Part shown: piece after piece, positions 9,788 to 35,066 of the stretch | Layout of the letters: every line of letters begins with the position of its first letter | How positions within the stretch are numbered: the first letter of the stretch is position 1 | Source of the DNA: Candidatus Woesearchaeota archaeon | GTDB lineage: Archaea > Nanobdellota > Nanobdellia > Pacearchaeales > GW2011-AR1 | Length of the DNA stretch: 39,119 nt | Assembly: GCA_964600565.1 (NCBI GenBank) | Contig: CAZRJS010000005.1 | Coordinates: forward strand, 1-39,119 | Direction: 5' to 3' | Notes under the pieces: model-generated | Told to the model about the DNA's origin: nothing | The model's database searches: none | The model's input: only the letters and a program-made list of their open reading frames with translations | Made by a program: the position numbers and the translations under genes

Positions 9788-9847
9788 TTTAAATTAATGA
9801 AATGTAAATTGAGATATATATAAAATTAGTTGTAGTAAAAATCTATA

Positions 9848-10195
9848 TTACTTATAATTAAATTTTTTATTGTAAGTTTTATGGTTAATTATGTCGCGTA
9901 CAAAAGATATTATTTCTATTTTTGTTTCTCCTTCTGTTAAGGTATATAACATCCTCCAGAAGTTTGGGAGCTCAACTCTAAATAAATTTGTCACATTATA
10001 TTTTTCTTTATATTCTTTAGGAATTAATCTTTTTAAAATAGGGTTTCCATAATGAGGATTTATCTTAATCAGTTCTGACTTTTGTTTTATTGAATTCAAA
10101 ATCATCCTCTCTGTTTTTGAATTACTAGATTCTTTACTTAAATATTCATAAACTTCTCTTGCTTCAGAGGAGAGAATTATTGTTACTTTCTTCAT
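9848..10195 (-). CDS. RelE/ParE-superfamily-like toxin (copy 1)
   Basis: 115 aa with the pattern NPHYGNP...LPNFWRMLYTL...IEIISFVRDIINHKTYNKKF, comparable to the RelE/ParE core (wRiiY ... H.k.Y). ATGA start/stop overlap with the upstream small gene. Paralog of 32026..32355. Confidence 0.5.
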   Translation of the reverse strand: MKKVTIILSSEAREVYEYLSKESSNSKTERMILNSIKQKSELIKINPHYGNPILKRLIPKEYKEKYNVTNLFRVELPNFWRMLYTLTEGETKIEIISFVRDIINHKTYNKKFNYK

Positions 10196-10470
10196 ATTTG
10201 CAAACCTTTACTAATTGCTTTTTTTAAATTTGGATTTGTATTGTGAATCCAAGTTATTCCATTAAGTGAAGTAAAAATTTTATTACTCTGCTCTAAATAC
10301 TGAAGAATAAGCATAAGGGTATTGTGATTAACTTGTCTAGGAAGATTTCTTTTAAGTTCTGCAATAGAAATAACACTTTCATTTGCCTCTTTCAAAATTT
10401 TTTCTATCATAATTACAGTATTAAGTGTTGGCCAATGAATTACTTTTCTTCCTTGTACTAAACTTGACAT
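10192..10470 (-). CDS. small winged-helix-like protein, putative antitoxin (copy 1)
   Basis: 92-aa ORF translationally coupled to the toxin-like gene by a 4-nt ATGA overlap. Homologous by eye to 31745..32029 (HWPTLNTVIMIE vs HYPQLDTILRME; W.H/W.W near the C-terminus). Confidence 0.45.
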   Translation of the reverse strand: MSSLVQGRKVIHWPTLNTVIMIEKILKEANESVISIAELKRNLPRQVNHNTLMLILQYLEQSNKIFTSLNGITWIHNTNPNLKKAISKGLQI

Positions 10471-10604
10471 TTTAATAATTAATAGTTATTTACTTGTAAA
10501 TATTAACGATAAGTTTGTATTTAAGGTTTTTGGTTTAAATTTTATAATTAATTTTTTTATTAAATCTAAAAATATTAATTACAAAGGAGTAACAAAAAGA
10601 AAGA

Positions 10605-10612
10605 TTTATATA
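10605..10612 (+). promoter_or_regulatory. TATA-box-like TTTATATA upstream of 10635..11384
   Basis: TTTATATA at -30 to -23 relative to the ATG. The identical element sits at the same spacing in the second duplication unit. Confidence 0.4.
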
Positions 10613-10634
10613 GCCATTATGTGTTTAAAAAAAC

Positions 10635-11384
10635 ATGAAACCAACATTAATAGAACAAATAGGAGTAAAAAATAAACCCCTGCCTATGCTTTTAGGAGAA
10701 GAAAGTTTCTTAGAAAGAAAAGATAAGCCTTTATTACAAGTTTTAACATATAGGGAAATTTTCAACCCAGAAAAATCAAGAGAAACTGCCTTGAATATTT
10801 TAGAAAATGAGTCTTTGAAAGAAAGAGGAATTGTTTATAAAGGACATCCATGGAAATTTGATGAATTTAATAATCCTGAAAAATTAAAAAAAAATCTTGA
10901 TTATTCCCAAAAAGAATTTGATTTTCTTAGTGTTTCAGGGACTTACATTCCCTGGAAAGGACCTTGGGAGAAAGGCAGAATTGTAGATAATTTAGAAAAA
11001 AAATATTGGGCATATTATGGATATTTTGTTGGAGGAGCTTCTATATTATCCTTAGCATCAGGATCTCCTTTTTTAGGAGTTGGAAGTGCATCTTTATTAG
11101 TTTTTGCTTTGGTAGAAAAAAATAGAAGAAACAAAAAAGAGATAGTAAGAATTAAATTGAATAAATTAGAAAATGCAGCTGATTCTTATAATACTATCCA
11201 AGATAATTTAGAAAGAGCAGAAATTGAAGTTTATTCCCCAGATTCTGCAAAGAAAATTTTTGGAAAAGTTAAAGAGATTCGAAAAAGAAAAAATAATCCA
11301 TATGAATTAAAAAGTATTAATTTAAAAAAAGTGAATAAAGATTTGATAAATTCATACGATAATTTCTTAAGAGCAAATCCTTAA
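10635..11384 (+). CDS. hypothetical membrane protein, tandem paralog A
   Basis: 249 aa with a hydrophobic hairpin GGASILSLASGSPFLGVGSASLLVFALVEK and a coiled-coil-like C-terminal half. No family recognised. Confidence 0.6.
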   Translation: MKPTLIEQIGVKNKPLPMLLGEESFLERKDKPLLQVLTYREIFNPEKSRETALNILENESLKERGIVYKGHPWKFDEFNNPEKLKKNLDYSQKEFDFLSVSGTYIPWKGPWEKGRIVDNLEKKYWAYYGYFVGGASILSLASGSPFLGVGSASLLVFALVEKNRRNKKEIVRIKLNKLENAADSYNTIQDNLERAEIEVYSPDSAKKIFGKVKEIRKRKNNPYELKSINLKKVNKDLINSYDNFLRANP

Positions 11385-11434
11385 TTTAATAATAATTTAT
11401 AGAGAGTTGGAATTGATTTTTCAGGATTTTCTAT
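11381..11434 (-). pseudogene. orphan copy of the 3' end of gene 12245..13129
   Basis: The minus strand translates IENPEKSIPTLYKLLLN*, against the genuine C-terminus IENHEKSIPTLYRLLLN* at 12245-12298. It lies at the equivalent position of duplication unit 1 with no upstream ORF. Confidence 0.7.
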
Positions 11435-11471
11435 CTATTTTATTAATTTCAAAGGAGTAACAAAAGAAAGA

Positions 11472-11479
11472 TTTATATA
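11472..11479 (+). promoter_or_regulatory. TATA-box-like TTTATATA upstream of 11502..12248
   Basis: Duplicate of the element at 10605-10612, with the same -30 to -23 spacing to the ATG. Confidence 0.4.
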
Positions 11480-11501
11480 GCTATTATATGTTTAGAAAAA
11501 C

Positions 11502-12248
11502 ATGAAACCAACATTAATAGTACAAATAGGAGAGAAAAATAACCCTATACCCATGCTTTTAGGTGAAGAGAGTTTATTAGAAAAGAAAAACAATCCTTTG
11601 TTACAAGTTTTAACATATACAGAAGGATTAAAACCAGAAGAAGCAAGAGAAACTGCTTTGAATATTTTAGAAAATGAGCCTTTGAAAGAAAGAGGAATTT
11701 TCTATAAAGAACTTAAATGGGAGCAAGAATTCTTGAATAATTCTCGTAAATTGCAAGAAAGTGCTAAGGTTATTCCAAGAGAATTAGATTCTTATAGTTC
11801 TATTTCAAAAATTTATCTTCCTTGGAAGAAAGGGGAGATTCGGTTTGATTTAGCTAAAAAAGCAGGGGCATTATACGGAGAAGTTATAGGGATGTATGGT
11901 TTGACTTTAGCATCAATAGGTTTTCCTTTTTTAGGACTTGGAGTTGGAAGTGCATCTTTATTAGTTTTTGCTTTGGTAGAAAAAGATAGAAGAAACAAAA
12001 AAGAGATAGCAAGAACTAATTTGAATAAATTAGAAAATGTAGTTGATTCTTACAAAAACCTTGAAGATAATTTAAAGAGAGCAGAAATTAAAATTTATTC
12101 TCCAAAACCAGCTAAAGAAATTTTTGAAAAAGTTAAAGAGATTCGAAAAAGAAAAAATAATCCATATGAATTAAAAAGTATTAATTTAAAAAAAGTGAAT
12201 AAAGATTTGATAGATTTATACGATAATTTCTTAAGAGCAAATCCTTAA
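11502..12248 (+). CDS. hypothetical membrane protein, tandem paralog B
   Basis: 248 aa. The N-terminal ~65 and C-terminal ~45 residues are nearly identical to paralog A, while the central ~60 residues are strongly diverged. Its stop overlaps the convergent gene's stop (TTAA). Confidence 0.6.
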   Translation: MKPTLIVQIGEKNNPIPMLLGEESLLEKKNNPLLQVLTYTEGLKPEEARETALNILENEPLKERGIFYKELKWEQEFLNNSRKLQESAKVIPRELDSYSSISKIYLPWKKGEIRFDLAKKAGALYGEVIGMYGLTLASIGFPFLGLGVGSASLLVFALVEKDRRNKKEIARTNLNKLENVVDSYKNLEDNLKRAEIKIYSPKPAKEIFEKVKEIRKRKNNPYELKSINLKKVNKDLIDLYDNFLRANP

Positions 12249-13129
12249 TTTAATAATAATCTATAGAGAGTTGGAATAGATTTTTCATGATTTTCTATAA
12301 TAGTTAATCCCTTTCCTTTAAAATAAGTTGGTCTTTCGACCACATTTTTTCTAGGTCGATAATGATCTATTTTATCTAAATTTGCTGCAGTAAATTTTTC
12401 CACATTAAAACCTAAATTTCTAGTTATTGAAAATGATTTAAGAAAAACCTCAGGCATTATTACAGCAGAACCTAAATTAACCACAACTCCTTGTTTTAAT
12501 TTTGAAATAGAATCTGTTAAAATCTTAAAATCATTATATGAAGAACTCCCTAATGCTCCTGCATCACATTCAGGATGTTCATAAATTATCTCAGCCCCAA
12601 TTGCAGTGTGAACTGTGAGAGGAATATTTAACTTATATGAATGATAAAATAAACTAAATTCTTTATACTTCAAATTCATATCAGATATTAATTTGCCAAT
12701 AGAATATCCTAATCCAAGATTCTTTTTAGAAGCTTTTTTTGCAGCTAAGTTCAAATAATGCCCTGTTTCTTCAGCCATTCCAAAACTTCCATCTTTAAGA
12801 TTTTCTAAAACATCTTCTGAAGTTGCACCAATATAAGCTATCTCAAAATCATGAATTGGAACTGCTCCATTTACTGCAATATGAGTAATAATATCTCTCT
12901 TCATTAAATCAATAATAAATAAAGATAAACCTAATTTAATTGCATGTGCACCCATCATAAAAATAAATTGCTTGTTATTTTTTCTTGCTTGAGTTATTTT
13001 TTCTGAAAGTTCAATCAAGTTTTTGTTATTAGATAAAATTATAGGGTCTGATAAAGAAATTATATTCTCTAAATTAAATTTATTTTTTCTCTTGCTTAAA
13101 GAGATAGTTTTTATTTTATTAAAATCCAT
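12245..13129 (-). CDS. conserved hypothetical protein with weak deoxyhypusine-synthase-like (DS-fold) resemblance
   Basis: The ORF starts 1 nt after the mre11 stop. Segments MMGAHAIKLGLSLFIIDLMKRDIITHIAVNGAVPIHDFEI and SLFYHSYKLNIPLTVHTAIG resemble by eye the Rossmann-like layout of deoxyhypusine synthases. I do not see the SWGK-type lysine region I recall from true DHS. Confidence 0.35.
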   Translation of the reverse strand: MDFNKIKTISLSKRKNKFNLENIISLSDPIILSNNKNLIELSEKITQARKNNKQFIFMMGAHAIKLGLSLFIIDLMKRDIITHIAVNGAVPIHDFEIAYIGATSEDVLENLKDGSFGMAEETGHYLNLAAKKASKKNLGLGYSIGKLISDMNLKYKEFSLFYHSYKLNIPLTVHTAIGAEIIYEHPECDAGALGSSSYNDFKILTDSISKLKQGVVVNLGSAVIMPEVFLKSFSITRNLGFNVEKFTAANLDKIDHYRPRKNVVERPTYFKGKGLTIIENHEKSIPTLYRLLLN

Positions 13130-16859: not shown

Positions 16860-16946
16860 ATTAAATAAAAAAAACATAGTTTAAAAATGTTTTAGAATTA
16901 TATTCAAATTCTAATATGAATATGCTTTAGTGAAACAATTAATAAT

Positions 16947-17025
16947 ATATTTATTTCAGAAAAAATTATTTACTGAATAAAATAAAAGTAATTAATAAAA
17001 AATTAACTATTAATAAAACTCCTAA
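16947..17025. repeat. 79-nt intergenic repeat, copy A (upstream of RNase J)
   Basis: Matches 33739-33817 at 68 of 79 positions by my hand alignment, including exact runs ATATTTATTTCAGAAAAAA (19 nt) and AAAAGTAATTAATAAAAAATTA (22 nt). Confidence 0.7.
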
Positions 17026-17117: not shown

Positions 17118-19499
17118 CTAAATTCTAAATCTTAAAATAGCCCCCATTCCTGAAAGATTATAAAATTGCTCTCCTTCTGTTGTCTCTCTTGAAACTATTT
17201 CTATCTTGGCAGAGATTTCTTCTGCAAGTTTTTTTAATTCCTTAAATAAAATTTTTTTATATCCTTTTGTAAAAATTAGGGTTTCTATAGCACCATATTG
17301 CAAAGCTTTTCTTATTTCAGATTCTTTATAAACTACAAGTTCAGAAGTTTCTCCAAGAATTCTGAAAAATTTCTCAAGTAATTTTTTTTCATAAATTATT
17401 TCTTGATTAGCAAGTAATTCTTGTGATCTCTGAACTAATTCATTTAATCCTGTTTCAGATGAATCTCCAATATCTACTCTTCCAATTACTTTTTCTTTAA
17501 GTTTTGTTTTTAAATAATCTCCATCAAGAAATTCATCTTTTGTAGGAACAGGCCCACCAACAATTATACCTCCTAATTTAGGCATTTCAAAAAAACTTTT
17601 TTTCATCTCTTCTGCAATTCTTTTATAAAATTCCTTTGTTAGGTTTTCTGTTATTCTATGAAATCTCTGAGAGGAATTATGAACAATTAACCCATTAGCT
17701 ATAAAATTATGATTTTTAGTTTCAATATCAACAGTACAATTAAACCCAATATTTTCAATTTTATTTATTTTTACTGCTATTAAATTTGAATTATAAAACA
17801 TCTCAAGTCTTCTCTTTAAATCAATATCCAAAATTTTATCCAAAATTTTATTCTTAAAAACTTCTTTGCTCATTTGCCTTTTATTACAAAAGAAATAACC
17901 GCAATGAAAACCTCTCGTATTTAATCCAGAATTTCTAATTATTTTTGCAACTTCAGACCCATTTACTGCTAATTGCCTAACCTTATTCCTGTTACTTCTA
18001 CTTTTAATTAGTTTCTTAACTTTATCTTGTTTTTCTGACGAGGAAAATTTGATTGTATTACAAAATTTTTTTAAAGATTCTAAGTCATCAATTGCTAAGG
18101 TATACCTTAAATTATTGGAATAAGGATTTCTTTTATTATCATATTCACTAACTGAAGAAATAACCCCTAACCTCAATAATGCAAATTGAAATTGTTTTGC
18201 TAAAGTTTTATTGTTAATTCCAAATGCAATTTTGCCTTTAGAAACATATCCTTCTGCATCAAAAAATCCTGAAACAAATCCAGAAAGAGATTTATCAGAA
18301 GATTTTAAAATAATTTGTGGAATTTTTCCTTCCAAAGTTTTATTTTTGTCTGGAAAGATTTGTTTAAATAATTGACTAATTATTCTACTATACACTCTCA
18401 ATTGCCAATAATTTTTAGATTTTCTAAACCTTAAATCAGAATGAATTTCAAAAATTTCCTTAATTAAATTTTTATAATAATTTGCAAACTCCTCTCGTTG
18501 TTCAAAAAAGGTTATTCTATCCTCTTCATAACTTCCATCTCCAAGATAATAACCTAAAATTTTTGCTAATTTTTGATTAATTTTTTTTGGAATTTCAACT
18601 TTTTTAATATTAAAAAATTGTTTAATTTTTGGATAAAAATCTATTTTTTGATCTTTTAAATCAAGATTAATTTTCTCTGGAAAAATTAAATAATCTCCTT
18701 CTTTAATCTCACAAAGAGGTTTCTCAACTATTCCTTTATCACATCTAACAAAAAAAGTGTGCTCTTTTGAAGCATTAATCTCAAATCTAGGGTAAGCAGT
18801 GATTATCTTAAATAATTCTTTTTTATCTTCCCATTTTACAACAAGCGGAGTTTCTTCTATTTTCTCTTTATTAAAATTTTCAGAAATTATTATTAAAGGA
18901 TTATGGGAATCTTTAATCTCAATAATCTCACCATTATTTTTCATGATTAATGTTTCAGGACTTAAGCATTGCCCTCCAGCCCTTATTTTACTTGGAATTC
19001 CAGAAGTCATTTTATGAAGCATCTCTATTCTTTTTCCTTCAAGCATCCCAATAGTGGCTTCTTTTCTATCCATGACTAACAATCCAAAAACTTCAGAAAC
19101 TTCTAACATAAATTCTAATGCTTCAAGAACAAATTCTTTATCACATCTATAAAGACGAGCTTTAAGAGGTATTGGGGGTTCAATCAACCATAATTGCAAA
19201 TCACTCTGACCTTCTACTTTTGAAACATTACCAGAAAAAACCGCTAGTCCATTTTTAGGAGTTTTTTTAAGACCTTTAAGTTCACGAACAATTTTTTCAA
19301 GAGCCTCAATAACATTTTTTCTATTTGAAGCAGATTTTATATTTTTAGCTGTTGCTTTTTCTGCCTCTAATTGTCTCTGAACTGTATTAATATCATAATT
19401 CTCAGGAACATAAACTGTAATCAATTCCGTATGTCTTCCTTTGTAATTTTTCAACTCTTCAACAACTTCTTCAAGCTCTTGTTTTGTTAATATAGTCAT
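17118..19499 (-). CDS. prf1: peptide chain release factor aRF1, interrupted by an intein
   Basis: NIKS motif (AKNIKSAS), then GGQ (RAGGQ) followed immediately by a 431-aa insert. The C-extein resumes SSQRFHRI. At 793 aa it is roughly twice the normal aRF1 length. Confidence 0.9.
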   Translation of the reverse strand: MTILTKQELEEVVEELKNYKGRHTELITVYVPENYDINTVQRQLEAEKATAKNIKSASNRKNVIEALEKIVRELKGLKKTPKNGLAVFSGNVSKVEGQSDLQLWLIEPPIPLKARLYRCDKEFVLEALEFMLEVSEVFGLLVMDRKEATIGMLEGKRIEMLHKMTSGIPSKIRAGGQCLSPETLIMKNNGEIIEIKDSHNPLIIISENFNKEKIEETPLVVKWEDKKELFKIITAYPRFEINASKEHTFFVRCDKGIVEKPLCEIKEGDYLIFPEKINLDLKDQKIDFYPKIKQFFNIKKVEIPKKINQKLAKILGYYLGDGSYEEDRITFFEQREEFANYYKNLIKEIFEIHSDLRFRKSKNYWQLRVYSRIISQLFKQIFPDKNKTLEGKIPQIILKSSDKSLSGFVSGFFDAEGYVSKGKIAFGINNKTLAKQFQFALLRLGVISSVSEYDNKRNPYSNNLRYTLAIDDLESLKKFCNTIKFSSSEKQDKVKKLIKSRSNRNKVRQLAVNGSEVAKIIRNSGLNTRGFHCGYFFCNKRQMSKEVFKNKILDKILDIDLKRRLEMFYNSNLIAVKINKIENIGFNCTVDIETKNHNFIANGLIVHNSSQRFHRITENLTKEFYKRIAEEMKKSFFEMPKLGGIIVGGPVPTKDEFLDGDYLKTKLKEKVIGRVDIGDSSETGLNELVQRSQELLANQEIIYEKKLLEKFFRILGETSELVVYKESEIRKALQYGAIETLIFTKGYKKILFKELKKLAEEISAKIEIVSRETTEGEQFYNLSGMGAILRFRI
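17676..18968 (-). mobile_element. intein with LAGLIDADG homing endonuclease domain (aRF1 residues 178-608)
   Basis: Starts with Cys (CLSPETLIM, block A) and has an SKEH block-B-like motif. LAGLIDADG motifs LGYYLGDGSY and GFFDAEGYV. Ends NHNFIANGLIVHN, followed by the +1 Ser. Boundary codons were checked at 18966-18968 (TGC) and 17676-17678 (AAT). Confidence 0.85.
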
Positions 19500-19993: not shown

Positions 19994-20013
19994 ATTTAAT
20001 TATTAAAGTTTAA

Positions 20014-20047
20014 TTTAAATAAATTTATATCCTGGAAAATAAATATT
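20014..20047. repeat. 34-nt perfect direct repeat, copy 1
   Basis: TTTAAATAAATTTATATCCTGGAAAATAAATATT is identical to 21304-21337. Confidence 0.9.
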
Positions 20048-20090
20048 CTATAAAGAAAGAATAATTAAATAGCTGTAAATTATTAGGTCA

Positions 20091-21258: not shown

Positions 21259-21303
21259 TTCAAAAGAACCCCTTATCTTTATATTTTAATGACAGAAATG
21301 TAT

Positions 21304-21337
21304 TTTAAATAAATTTATATCCTGGAAAATAAATATT
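21304..21337. repeat. 34-nt perfect direct repeat, copy 2
   Basis: Identical to 20014-20047. Confidence 0.9.
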
Positions 21338-21360
21338 AAATAGAAAAAATTAAATTGCTT

Positions 21361-25818: not shown

Positions 25819-26226
25819 ATGGGAGATAAATCAAAATACACTTTTGAGATTAAACTTAGATATTTAAATTCAGACTTACTAAGAAAAAATAATCATTTCC
25901 AATCAAAATTAGAAGAGACAATTCAATTGGGAAGAGACAGTGGAATTAATATTGAAATTGGAATATATCCGGAAATAACATCAGAACTAAAAAATAAAGT
26001 AGAAGTTTATTTTTCTAATAAGACTTATAAGGGATTTAAATTAAATTTTAATCTAAAAAAATTAGAAAGATCTAACTTAGACCCAGCTACAATTTATGCT
26101 GTGACAGAAAAGATTGATTTTAAAGAATGTGTGGGAGATGATGAAAACTGGGAAACTGCCTTAGCAGATATTGGAAAAGAATTTGGTGTATACTTAAAAC
26201 CTAAATATTTGTTTAAAGAAATTTAA
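25819..26226 (+). CDS. hypothetical protein, tandem paralog 1 (135 aa)
   Basis: Shares YPEITSELKNKVEVYF, IYAVTEKI and NWETALADIGKEFGVYLK blocks with the next gene. No family recognised. Confidence 0.55.
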   Translation: MGDKSKYTFEIKLRYLNSDLLRKNNHFQSKLEETIQLGRDSGINIEIGIYPEITSELKNKVEVYFSNKTYKGFKLNFNLKKLERSNLDPATIYAVTEKIDFKECVGDDENWETALADIGKEFGVYLKPKYLFKEI

Positions 26227-26304: not shown

Positions 26305-26712
26305 ATGGTAAGCGAGCTAGATTATACTATAAATATAGAATTAAAACATCTAGGTCCAGAAGGGCTTAGTGATGATAAAGAACTTTTATTAAGTTTAGAA
26401 AATATTGTTGTTTTAGCAAAAGAGAAAGGAATTGATGTTAGAGTTGATAAATATCCTGAAATCACATCAGATTTAATAGATAAAGTTGGAGAGTATTTTA
26501 CTAAAACTACTCATTTAGGATATGAAGAAAAGGCTGGAAGACTTAAACTCAAAAGATTAGAGATATCAACTGTAGATTCAGATATTATTTATGCAGTAAC
26601 AGGTAAGGTCCCCCTAGATTTAAAAAGAGATTCTAAATGGGAAGAAGGGTTAGAAAACATCGGAGAAGAGTTGGGTGTATTTTTAAGAGTTAATTATTCT
26701 TCTGAGGATTAA
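26305..26712 (+). CDS. hypothetical protein, tandem paralog 2 (135 aa)
   Basis: Shares YPEITSDLIDKVGEYF, IYAVTGKV and KWEEGLENIGEELGVFLR blocks with the previous gene. Confidence 0.55.
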   Translation: MVSELDYTINIELKHLGPEGLSDDKELLLSLENIVVLAKEKGIDVRVDKYPEITSDLIDKVGEYFTKTTHLGYEEKAGRLKLKRLEISTVDSDIIYAVTGKVPLDLKRDSKWEEGLENIGEELGVFLRVNYSSED

Positions 26713-33027: not shown

Positions 33028-33591
33028 CTACTTTTTATAATTCTTCAATGCAACCTTAACATCTTTTAAAAGTTGTACCATGCTATGTTCAAGTTGCTGT
33101 TTATTTTTTGTTCCAGTGCAAACAAGTTTTCCATTTGTAAAAAGGAGAAATGTTGCATTTGGTTCTAGTAATTTATATACCAAACCAGGGAATTGCTCAG
33201 GCTCATATTCTGTATTTTGCATTTCAATAGCAAGAAAATTTAAATTAAGTTTTAAATTTATTGAACCAGAAGCCACAATATTTTGAACAGTAATTTTTGG
33301 TTTTGCAGTTATATTTACATTTATTTTTCTCAATTGTTTTATAACAGCTTCAAGAACTTTTCTTACCTGAACAACAGATTTTGTTCCAGTACACACTATA
33401 TTCCCTGAAGAGAAAACAAGAACAGCTGATTTTGGCTCTTTTATTCTTAAAACTAAACCAGGAAATGTTTCAGGATTATATTCTGTATTTGGTTGTGTGC
33501 GAGCAAGTTTTGTTAAGGGGATCGGTTTTCCTAATGAAGTTGTTGCTACAATATTTTGAATCTTGTACTCGCTATCTTTTTTGTTAGTCAT
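33028..33591 (-). CDS. tbp: TATA-box binding protein
   Basis: Two direct TBP repeats (IQNIVATTSLG...FPGLVLRIKEPKSAVLVFSSGNIVCTG and VQNIVASGSIN...FPGLVYKLLEPNATFLLFTNGKLVCTG). Confidence 0.9.
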   Translation of the reverse strand: MTNKKDSEYKIQNIVATTSLGKPIPLTKLARTQPNTEYNPETFPGLVLRIKEPKSAVLVFSSGNIVCTGTKSVVQVRKVLEAVIKQLRKINVNITAKPKITVQNIVASGSINLKLNLNFLAIEMQNTEYEPEQFPGLVYKLLEPNATFLLFTNGKLVCTGTKNKQQLEHSMVQLLKDVKVALKNYKK

Positions 33592-33738
33592 TTTAATTAC
33601 TAAAAAAAATCTATTTATAAATGCTTCGACGGGAAATAAAAATTATTTACTTAAAAAATAAGGTGTTAATAAAATTATTAACTACATAATTATCCTGAAA
33701 ATTTCTATTTATAATATTAATAAGGACTATTAAATAAA

Positions 33739-33817
33739 ATATTTATTTCAGAAAAAACTACTTATAGCATAAAAGAAAAGTAATTAATAAAAAATTAGTT
33801 ATCAATAAATCTCTTAA
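33739..33817. repeat. 79-nt intergenic repeat, copy B (upstream of TBP)
   Basis: See 16947-17025; 68 of 79 identical by hand alignment. Confidence 0.7.
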
Positions 33818-33888: not shown

Positions 33889-35001
33889 TTACTCATTAAA
33901 TTTTTTATCAATATATTCTATAAGATTGCTTCCTTCAATTCTTGTGCTTGCAGGACCAATTCTTATATAAAAATTCTCATTATCTTCTTCTTTTAAAAAA
34001 ACAGGAGATTTACTCCTTGCACATCTAATTTCTAAAATAAACTTATTTTTTATCTTTACTAATTCAAAATTAATTAAAGAAATGTATTTTTTTCCTATTT
34101 TTTCCTTGATAAGATTTGTAAAATGTAATAAAAACTTATCATTACTTGAAAAATTATCTTTATCAATCCCAATTATCTCCCCTTTATCTCCCACCCCAAT
34201 CAAGAGAATTCCTCCTTCAGAATTTAAAAAAGCATTTATAGTTTTCAGGACAGCATATTCAACTTTTTTATCAATTTCCTGAGTATACAAATTTTTTCTT
34301 AGTGTAGATTTGAACTCTAAATTACCACTCTCTCCAACCTCTAATAAATTTTCAACATCACTAACTGTATTCTTTTTCCTAAAGTGAAGATTTGGATTTG
34401 ATTTTTCAAACATCTCTATTATTTTTTTAAAAAAAGAAATTCTGCCCCTCATGTAAAAATATCCAATAACCGAAGCTATAATTGAACCAAGGGTAACTGA
34501 AATCATTAGATTCATTGTAAAAATATAGATATTATCACTAAGTGTATGTTTAAGTATAAATTTCAAACAATATTTGGAAAGTTCAATTAAAAATCCTGTT
34601 GTAACAGAAAAACAAAATGCAAATAATGAAATAAATAAAGGGTCTTTTTTTATTTTTCCATTTGAATAAAGAATTAACATAATTAAAAAACCAAAAAATC
34701 CCATTGCAATACCAAAAAAAATTGGTGTGACTAAACTGCTAATTTTCCTTGAAAAAAATGCAATAATCACAAAAATTAACAGTAAAAATTCAAATTCTTT
34801 TGGAATTTTTATTTTATGACTTTTCTTAATTAATTGGGGAAGAAATAATAACAAAAGCAATAACAGACTAATAGACATCATATGCCATAAATTATAATAA
34901 ACACTGCTAATCACAGAAACAAATAATAAAAATTTTAATATAACTGATAAAGAAGTGTTTATTTTTCTGGTTTTTTTATTAATCCAGTTTAAAAATTTCA
35001 T
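33889..35001 (-). CDS. multi-pass membrane protein fused to an AlbA_2 (Schlafen-like, divergent AAA) domain
   Basis: The N-terminal ~200 aa carry about six hydrophobic helices. The C-terminal domain has ESGNLEFKSTL...EYAVLKTINAFLNSEGGILLIGVGDKGEIIGI, the AlbA_2 signature. The track start at 35019 is a TTG; the first ATG is at 35001. Confidence 0.65.
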   Translation of the reverse strand: MKFLNWINKKTRKINTSLSVILKFLLFVSVISSVYYNLWHMMSISLLLLLLLFLPQLIKKSHKIKIPKEFEFLLLIFVIIAFFSRKISSLVTPIFFGIAMGFFGFLIMLILYSNGKIKKDPLFISLFAFCFSVTTGFLIELSKYCLKFILKHTLSDNIYIFTMNLMISVTLGSIIASVIGYFYMRGRISFFKKIIEMFEKSNPNLHFRKKNTVSDVENLLEVGESGNLEFKSTLRKNLYTQEIDKKVEYAVLKTINAFLNSEGGILLIGVGDKGEIIGIDKDNFSSNDKFLLHFTNLIKEKIGKKYISLINFELVKIKNKFILEIRCARSKSPVFLKEEDNENFYIRIGPASTRIEGSNLIEYIDKKFNE

Positions 35002-35066
35002 TAAAATAAAAGATTTCAAAGTTTAAAGATTTTTGGAAAAAAGATTTATATACTTCTATTGTTTTT

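Follow-up and report, generated by a model that had tools for sequence, protein, structure and literature searches.

A stretch of 39,119 nucleotides (nt) from a small archaeal genome (Candidatus Woesearchaeota archaeon, assembly GCA_964600565.1, contig CAZRJS010000005.1, positions 1 to 39,119; hereafter called the window) carries two collinear direct repeats, arranged head-to-tail, each of which contains one gene for a predicted transmembrane-hairpin protein of an unannotated family. The two open reading frames (ORFs), ORF1 and ORF2, are nearly identical in some segments and strongly diverged in others, and their silent sites form a patchwork that is best explained, in our judgement probably correctly, by an older tandem duplication whose copies have been partly homogenised by short tracts of gene conversion or of unequal crossover. 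The duplication, its borders, an orphan fragment of the neighbouring gene copied together with the unit, and the patchy divergence at silent sites are observed directly. A tandem duplicate with conversion patches is a real but ordinary product of genome evolution, which changes no general concept; the locus is a clean, small example of how tandem duplicates evolve in a reduced archaeal genome.

Two tandem units with patchy divergence

A repeat search and a MAFFT alignment delimited the two units (Table 1), which are collinear over their whole length and are separated by a novel junction of 6 nt, as a tandem segmental duplication would leave them. Their start-to-start spacing shrinks from 868 nt at the left end to 864 nt at the right. 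Each unit begins with a leader (62 nt in unit 1, 61 nt in unit 2), continues with an intact reading frame and runs 50 nt beyond the stop codon of its ORF; the two proteins share 67% of their amino acids. A TATA box, TTTATATA, lies exactly 30 nt before each ATG. Since boxes of the form TTTAWAWA at -27 to -30 from the start codon are common among the genes of the window, each unit seems to have an ordinary archaeal core promoter that would give a leaderless mRNA. The preliminary description of this DNA, made from the letters and a list of reading frames, had already recognised two units with a shared leader, a box of this type at -30, ORFs of 248/249 amino acids and about 50 nt past the stop, all of which stand, with borders that we have refined. 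The tetranucleotide TCTA occurs at both borders of the duplication, but 4 nt in DNA of 26% GC are not meaningful as microhomology, and the junction is no simple join.

Table 1. Features of the duplicated locus and its surroundings, in positions of the window.
Feature	Positions	Strand	Description
Repeat unit 1	10573-11434	+	Core promoter (putative), ORF1, orphan 50-nt tail; repeat search, MAFFT
Repeat unit 2	11441-12298	+	Core promoter (putative), ORF2, tail formed by the genuine 3' end of the neighbour; repeat search, MAFFT
Unit junction	11435-11440	none	CTATTT, 6 nt
ORF1	10635..11384	+	249 amino acids, predicted transmembrane-hairpin protein, unannotated family
ORF2	11502..12248	+	248 amino acids, paralogue of ORF1
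Putative TATA box of ORF1, TTTATATA	10605-10612	+	30 nt before ATG; preceded by a purine-rich stretch resembling a B recognition element
Putative TATA box of ORF2, TTTATATA	11472-11479	+	30 nt before ATG
Variable block, unit 1	10839..11075	+	Codons 69-147; counterpart in unit 2 at 11706-11939
Putatively converted patch A	11076..11162	+	Codons 148-176, second hairpin helix and basic flank; counterpart 11940-12026
Old patch in 3' half	11163..11264	+	Codons 177-210
Putatively converted patch B	11265..11434	+	Codons 211-249, stop, orphan tail
Convergent neighbour, GSU2086 family (deoxyhypusine-synthase-like)	12245..13129	-	294 amino acids; NCBIfam NF052581
Orphan copy of the end of the GSU2086-family gene	11381-11434	-	Last 17 codons and stop; IENPEKSIPTLYKLLLN followed by the stop
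Lineage-specific insert	9788..12244	none	2,457 nt; orf115, orf92, ORF1 and ORF2, between rad50 and the GSU2086-family gene
Overlapping two-gene module	9848..10470	-	92 and 115 amino acids

The units differ at 161 of 846 ungapped alignment columns and by several in-frame insertions or deletions (indels), and these differences are distributed very unevenly. In windows of 60 nt moved along the alignment, identity is 92% in the leader and 78-93% in codons 1-68, falls to 43-58% in the centre (10843-11075), rises to 93-97% at 11074-11163, dips to 72-82% at 11164-11253 and stays at 95-100% from 11254 to the unit end; the 3' half of the units is thus a patchwork too, and not uniformly conserved. The maximum chi-square of the distribution of differences (115.6) was reached by 0 of 200 shuffles. 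In the non-coding leader 4 of 60 positions differ in addition to one indel, the last 117 nt of the ORFs hold two substitutions only, and in the 50-nt tail three positions differ. The variable block, with 37% amino-acid and 57% nucleotide identity and in-frame indels of +1, -4 and +2 codons, spans low-confidence loops of the structural model described below, a helix at residues 81-99, the conserved motif PWK and the hairpin's first helix. The uneven divergence and the two substitutions in the last ~120 nt of the ORFs had been pointed out before, and both the windowed profile and our counts agree; the variable segment, which had been placed at residues ~70-130 just before the hairpin, is likewise real, but it extends over residues ~69-147 and so includes the first hairpin helix.

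The same patchwork appears when only silent changes are considered. Synonymous divergence (dS) and the ratio of nonsynonymous to synonymous divergence (dN/dS) were estimated block by block with the Nei-Gojobori method. Three blocks are old by this measure, codons 1-68 (dS 0.39, dN/dS 0.30), codons 69-147 (0.66 and 0.95) and codons 177-210 (0.57 and 0.34), and in two others dS is zero and dN/dS therefore undefined: codons 148-176, with 0 of 18.8 synonymous sites changed and four nonsynonymous differences, and codons 211-249, with 0 of 20.8 synonymous sites changed and two nonsynonymous differences. The block between the two zero-dS blocks has 8 of its 20 synonymous sites changed, against 0 of 40 in the zero-dS blocks (Fisher p = 4.9e-5), and it coincides with the most conserved motif of the protein family, Y.NF..N.E.A.I.IYSP.EA. 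At codons for identical residues, the share of synonymous changes is 12%, 38%, 7% and 3% in the four blocks compared (chi-square p = 1e-4); permutations of these changes that use no preset blocks give p = 0.005 for the maximum chi-square and, for the two longest runs free of change, p = 0.007. The silent divergence of the centre is not merely an effect of alignment, because in Y.PWK, which lies inside the centre, is aligned for certain and is conserved family-wide, three of the four degenerate codons differ silently. Selection on the protein cannot produce zero silent change beside a dS of 0.57 within one purified domain, and such a silent-site patchwork is the pattern expected from short recombination tracts.

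The captured gene end and the history of the pair

The 50 nt that follow the reading frame in each unit belong to another gene. Downstream of ORF2 lies a convergent gene whose product matches NF052581 with 374.1 bits (cut-off 250), residues 1-290 of 294 aligning with positions 2-300 of the 301 in the profile; its stop codon overlaps that of ORF2, with which it shares the letters TTAA. Read on the minus strand, the 54 nt at 12245-12298 encode IENHEKSIPTLYRLLLN followed by the stop, the genuine C-terminus of this GSU2086-family protein. The corresponding copy in unit 1 has no start and is directly preceded by a stop codon upstream, and in the ..HEKSIPTL.. motif, conserved in homologues of the neighbour, it has Pro in place of the conserved His. 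Because the profile match extends to residue 290 of 294, the motif is conserved and the orphan copy carries the His-to-Pro change, the tail of unit 2 is the functional copy and that of unit 1 a by-product of the duplication. The resemblance to the GSU2086 family is full-length and concerns the neighbour only: it is not the family of the duplicated gene, and the last 17 codons of the neighbour were merely copied with the unit. The earlier proposal that the duplication took along part of the neighbour's 3' end is borne out, in a true tandem duplication.

The order of events, the mechanism of conversion and the roles of promoter and terminator that we infer would be the following. Illegitimate or unequal recombination would have produced a tandem copy of a segment of 860-870 bp, made up of a core promoter, the orphan membrane-protein gene and the first 50 nt past its stop, which coincide with the 3' end of the convergent GSU2086-family gene and contain T-rich stretches that probably serve as terminators. 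Divergence of the copies would then have proceeded under purifying selection in the N-terminal domain and in the C-terminal motif, and near-neutrally in the central linker and the hairpin's first helix. Parts of the units would repeatedly have been re-homogenised by short tracts of gene conversion or unequal crossover; the latest tracts would span codons 148-176, and codons 211-249 plus the orphan tail, and the leader and the 5' part would bear older or weaker ones. The centre, at ~57% nucleotide identity, would be too diverged to serve as a conversion substrate and would for this reason retain the true age of the pair. The orphan tail remains 94% identical without coding constraint and is contiguous with the 117-nt stretch of the ORFs that is free of silent change, as expected if one tract covered both. 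Gene conversion homogenising parts of the units had been one of two causes offered in the preliminary description, and the block-wise dS values together with the block-free permutation argue for it. The duplication had also been called recent, which we cannot uphold: the three blocks with dS of 0.4-0.66 represent old copies or alleles, and only the converted patches look young.

Variants of the locus in other assemblies bear on whether exchange continues. Junction position 11439 is polymorphic (T/C), with C, giving CTATCT, in contigs L005 and L006 and at the second junction of L008, and position 12023 in unit 2 is polymorphic as well (G/A, with A in L004 and L007). L008 (ERZ27316679), a MEGAHIT contig of 1,417 nt, can be read as a three-unit array in which the unit-2 ORF is followed by a tail of the unit-1 type: it contains, in order, a unit-1 centre, the T-allele junction, a complete unit-2 ORF, a tail with three unit-1-type bases, the C-allele junction, and a unit-2-type leader with the start of the ORF. 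Such a structure is exactly what would result if an unequal crossover took place in the 43 nt of identical sequence at 12218-12260, and L008 fits ongoing exchange.

Several considerations weigh against an old duplication with later conversion. Only two sequences are compared, with no outgroup near enough to polarise the changes, be it for the direction of tracts or for the age of the duplication; no orthologue exceeds ~30% identity over its full length (51% for an 80-residue C-terminal fragment). The dS values come from few sites in a genome of 26% GC, chance alignment may account for some of the identical residues of the centre and would then inflate its silent divergence, and the difference at silent sites between the N-terminal block and the 3' blocks is not significant by itself (p = 0.13-0.18). 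L008 is a single contig, and the chances that it is a chimera of two strain variants are about even, because the C allele of the junction also sits at the ordinary junction between units 1 and 2 in two other assemblies.

An unlikely competitor is a recent duplication of alleles that had already diverged, either by Campbell-like unequal recombination between the chromosomes of two strains or by foreign patches entering a recent duplicate, so that the mosaic would reflect allelic recombination and not conversion between paralogues. Such a history would account equally well for the patchy silent divergence and the preserved orphan tail, strain polymorphism does exist at the locus (positions 11439 and 12023), and L008 combines two junction alleles. 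However, a collection of 5.8 billion proteins holds no single-copy or third allele, both 90% clusters being single-member; among 1.84 billion cluster representatives all homologues are at 51% identity or less; and a close homologue was found in 0 of 60 relatives. The donor must, in addition, also have had the gene convergent to a GSU2086-family gene.

Recent duplication followed by accelerated or diversifying evolution of the centre, with no recombination between the copies, is very improbable. The dN/dS of 0.95 in the centre and of 2.1 in its sub-block of codons 69-100 would speak for it, as would the fact that the centre is the most variable region family-wide. Nevertheless, the flanking zero-dS blocks are 3-10 times less diverged at silent sites than the centre and codons 177-210, purifying selection acts on codons 177-210, which have yet diverged silently, and the value of 2.1 rests on ~4 synonymous changes only, so that we do not rely on it as a sign of positive selection. 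The centre evolves near-neutrally, and its dN/dS is close to 1 because it is the least conserved part of the family alignment and the part modelled with the lowest confidence. Accelerated diversification, the other cause offered earlier, is thus not sufficient, silent sites being patchy too.

Still less probable, to the point that we give it hardly any weight, is an assembly artefact in which one gene was assembled as two or two strain variants were concatenated, a possibility that had been raised for checking. The source is indeed a metagenome-assembled genome of 170 contigs, and short contigs break inside the repeat in some samples. Against this stand the many differences between the copies (161/846 positions and in-frame indels), the integrity of both ORFs and the unique junction between them. 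Independent assemblies moreover show the same two-copy locus: a 36.9-kb contig of the European Nucleotide Archive (ENA) holds all of it, a single mismatch occurring in 8.7 kb; the junction is spanned, with one mismatch at most, by short contigs from three other samples, one of the Joint Genome Institute (JGI) and two further ones of ENA; and ENA and JGI contigs from 4 other samples match the locus with 0-3 mismatches. The exact ORF1 and ORF2 proteins are recorded on 7 and 6 contigs, respectively, and additional long contigs, of up to 78.9 kb, are reported with both proteins.

Diversity-generating retroelements occur in some DPANN archaea, and targeted hypermutation of the centre in a template/variable repeat pair would resemble the localised hypervariable block between two otherwise similar repeats of this small archaeal genome, but the idea can be dismissed, since substitutions in the centre are of all 12 types without adenine bias and are accompanied by indels, the block measures ~235 nt at 57% identity, each copy is a complete gene, and a scan of 36 window ORFs against Pfam turned up no reverse transcriptase.

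For an old duplication with later conversion, known systems offer partial parallels. Classic cases of concerted evolution include tufA/tufB and the archaeal chaperonin paralogues. Among prokaryotes, concerted evolution or gene conversion between duplicated genes is a familiar phenomenon (survey by Wang and Chen, 2018, PMC6053082). As in those systems, paralogues within one genome have here stretches identical at silent sites beside old diverged ones, and copies cluster by genome rather than by position. The present case differs in that the gene is a lineage-restricted orphan and not a core gene, that the tracts are short (~90-170 nt), one of them extending into the orphan fragment of a neighbour, and that conversion is deduced from two sequences only. 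The lpl genes of Staphylococcus aureus form a tandem cluster in which homologous recombination, acting at conserved stretches, reshuffles the paralogues (Tsuru and Kobayashi, 2008, PMC2568036); the conserved unit there comprises the 3' end of one ORF, the intergenic DNA and the next one's 5' end, and strains differ by copy-number rearrangements (PMC2568036). Both loci consist of recombining tandem paralogues, but their geometry is inverse, with a conserved centre and variable ends in lpl as against conserved ends and a variable centre here; furthermore, the present locus is archaeal and has two units (perhaps three in one variant). The duplicated unit would amount to a complete expression cassette whose terminator region was borrowed from the coding end of the neighbour. 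Any date drawn from its similarity profile would be misleading, since conversion patches give an old pair a recent appearance; the value of the locus lies in annotation and in a caution for the dating of duplicates in metagenome-assembled genomes.

A patchy family of predicted membrane proteins

Neither ORF1 nor ORF2 has a match above cut-offs in Pfam, NCBIfam, PHROGs, PADLOC or a profile search of the PDB, where only designer repeat proteins came up, which we dismissed as compositional noise. An AlphaFold2 model (predicted local distance difference test, pLDDT, 72; predicted template modelling score, pTM, 0.62) arranges helices 118-142 and 145-194 as a hairpin; pLDDT is below 50 at residues 65-74 and 101-121, and the centre is the lowest-confidence part. 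A Foldseek search with this model gave no fold match (best E 0.44 in PDB and 0.18 in the viral collection BFVD). Residues 124-160 form an uncharged stretch of 37 residues with a GSP turn and Kyte-Doolittle maxima, over 19 residues, of 1.63 and 2.06, and the hairpin is followed by a strongly basic flank, EKNRRNKKE. Because a signal peptide is lacking and the positive charge follows the second helix, the hairpin is predicted to be N-in/C-in, so that the variable segment is probably cytoplasmic and not, as had been presumed, exposed.

Six distant homologues (29-51% identity, E 2e-8 to 4e-4) emerged when the 1.84 billion representatives were searched exhaustively with HMMER; five of them are similar in length and architecture, and the sixth is a stand-alone C-terminal domain of 80 residues. 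The shared architecture starts with an N-terminal beta/alpha module, passes through a variable linker that ends in PWK(K) and an uncharged, glycine-rich segment of ~37 residues that has a turn at its centre, and closes with the basic flank and the conserved C-terminal module that carries the motif named above. A word search of the 5.8-billion-protein collection returned the ORF1 and ORF2 proteins only, to which a profile word search added P0008 alone. A search with the two-sequence alignment found nothing in the metagenome contig or genome contig collections, and an exact 40-nt pattern from the 3' end of the unit was absent from the metagenome contigs, a collection that may not include the window's own population.

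By an order-wide profile search, the family is present in 3 of the 301 genomes of the order, that is, in two besides the source. It is multi-copy where present, and pairs group by lineage in the tree (support 100/100 and 83/86). An independent tandem pair, of 227 and 215 amino acids with 36% identity, lies at 4071-5480 of L012 (GCA_964451185.1). Its two genes share, at the conserved C-terminal motif, a block of 78 nt with ~93% nucleotide identity and an exact run of 35 nt, which is only suggestive of a conversion tract and could also reflect codon bias, strong towards AT, combined with constraint. The genomic contexts of family members differ between lineages and thus give no functional lead; in two lineages (L012 1979-2533 and L014 3800-4354) the family member lies near a LemA gene, a small ferredoxin gene and a gene for a homologous multi-pass membrane protein of ~290 residues.

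It is conceivable, although we rate it as rather improbable, that ORF1 and ORF2 represent an undescribed, patchily distributed archaeal membrane-protein family, duplicated again and again in separate lineages, and that their locus is actively recombining in a natural population into two- and three-unit arrays. If so, copy number and the variable juxtamembrane segment would not drift neutrally but would be under diversifying or frequency-dependent pressure, for example from the interaction of a DPANN cell with a host or a virus.

The insert and other features of the window

Judged by gene order, the duplicated gene is part of a lineage-specific accessory insert that splits an ancestral core DNA-repair operon, mre11-GSU2086-rad50. 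Among 12 relatives of the same family that were examined, mre11 and rad50 are adjacent, 1-22 nt apart, in 10 of the 10 that have both genes on the stretch retrieved from them; the reference genomes of the family are without the GSU2086-family gene and have mre11 directly beside rad50. The gene order mre11-GSU2086-rad50 is found on the contigs whose GSU2086-family homologues come closest (72% and 68% identity), and in the nearest metagenomic relatives (L059 3839-7933, L060, and L061 3025-7932) rad50 overlaps the GSU2086-family gene by 4 nt. An extra radical-SAM gene is present in one lineage with this order.

Within the insert, ORF1 and ORF2 lie on the opposite strand, and the module of 92-residue and 115-residue genes lies on the rad50 strand. 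The products of the module have no family match in Pfam, NCBIfam, PHROGs or PADLOC. The same pair recurs, at 65-70% identity, at another site in the relative G014 (L056 1943-2550), between RNase J and a 170-residue gene, and thus behaves like a mobile two-gene module. Apart from documenting a predicted archaeal membrane-protein family without annotation, the duplicated locus marks, together with this module, a lineage-specific insertion that breaks an otherwise tight operon.

We also would like to mention further features of the window. A second tandem pair, of unannotated 135-residue genes (25819-26226 and 26305-26712, plus strand; 38% identical, BLASTP E 4e-26, no Pfam match), suggests a much older tandem duplication. 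The aRF1 gene (17118-19499, minus strand) has its eRF1 domains 1-3 split by an intein with a LAGLIDADG domain (Pfam Intein_splicing and LAGLIDADG_3). Intergenic direct repeats occur at 16941-17025 and 33733-33817 (85 nt, 86% identity) and at 19995-20058 and 21285-21348 (64 nt, 83% identity), the latter containing TTTATATCC. Finally, a 376-residue protein with a C-terminal Schlafen/AlbA_2 domain is encoded at 33889-35019 on the minus strand, adjoining TBP (33028-33591).

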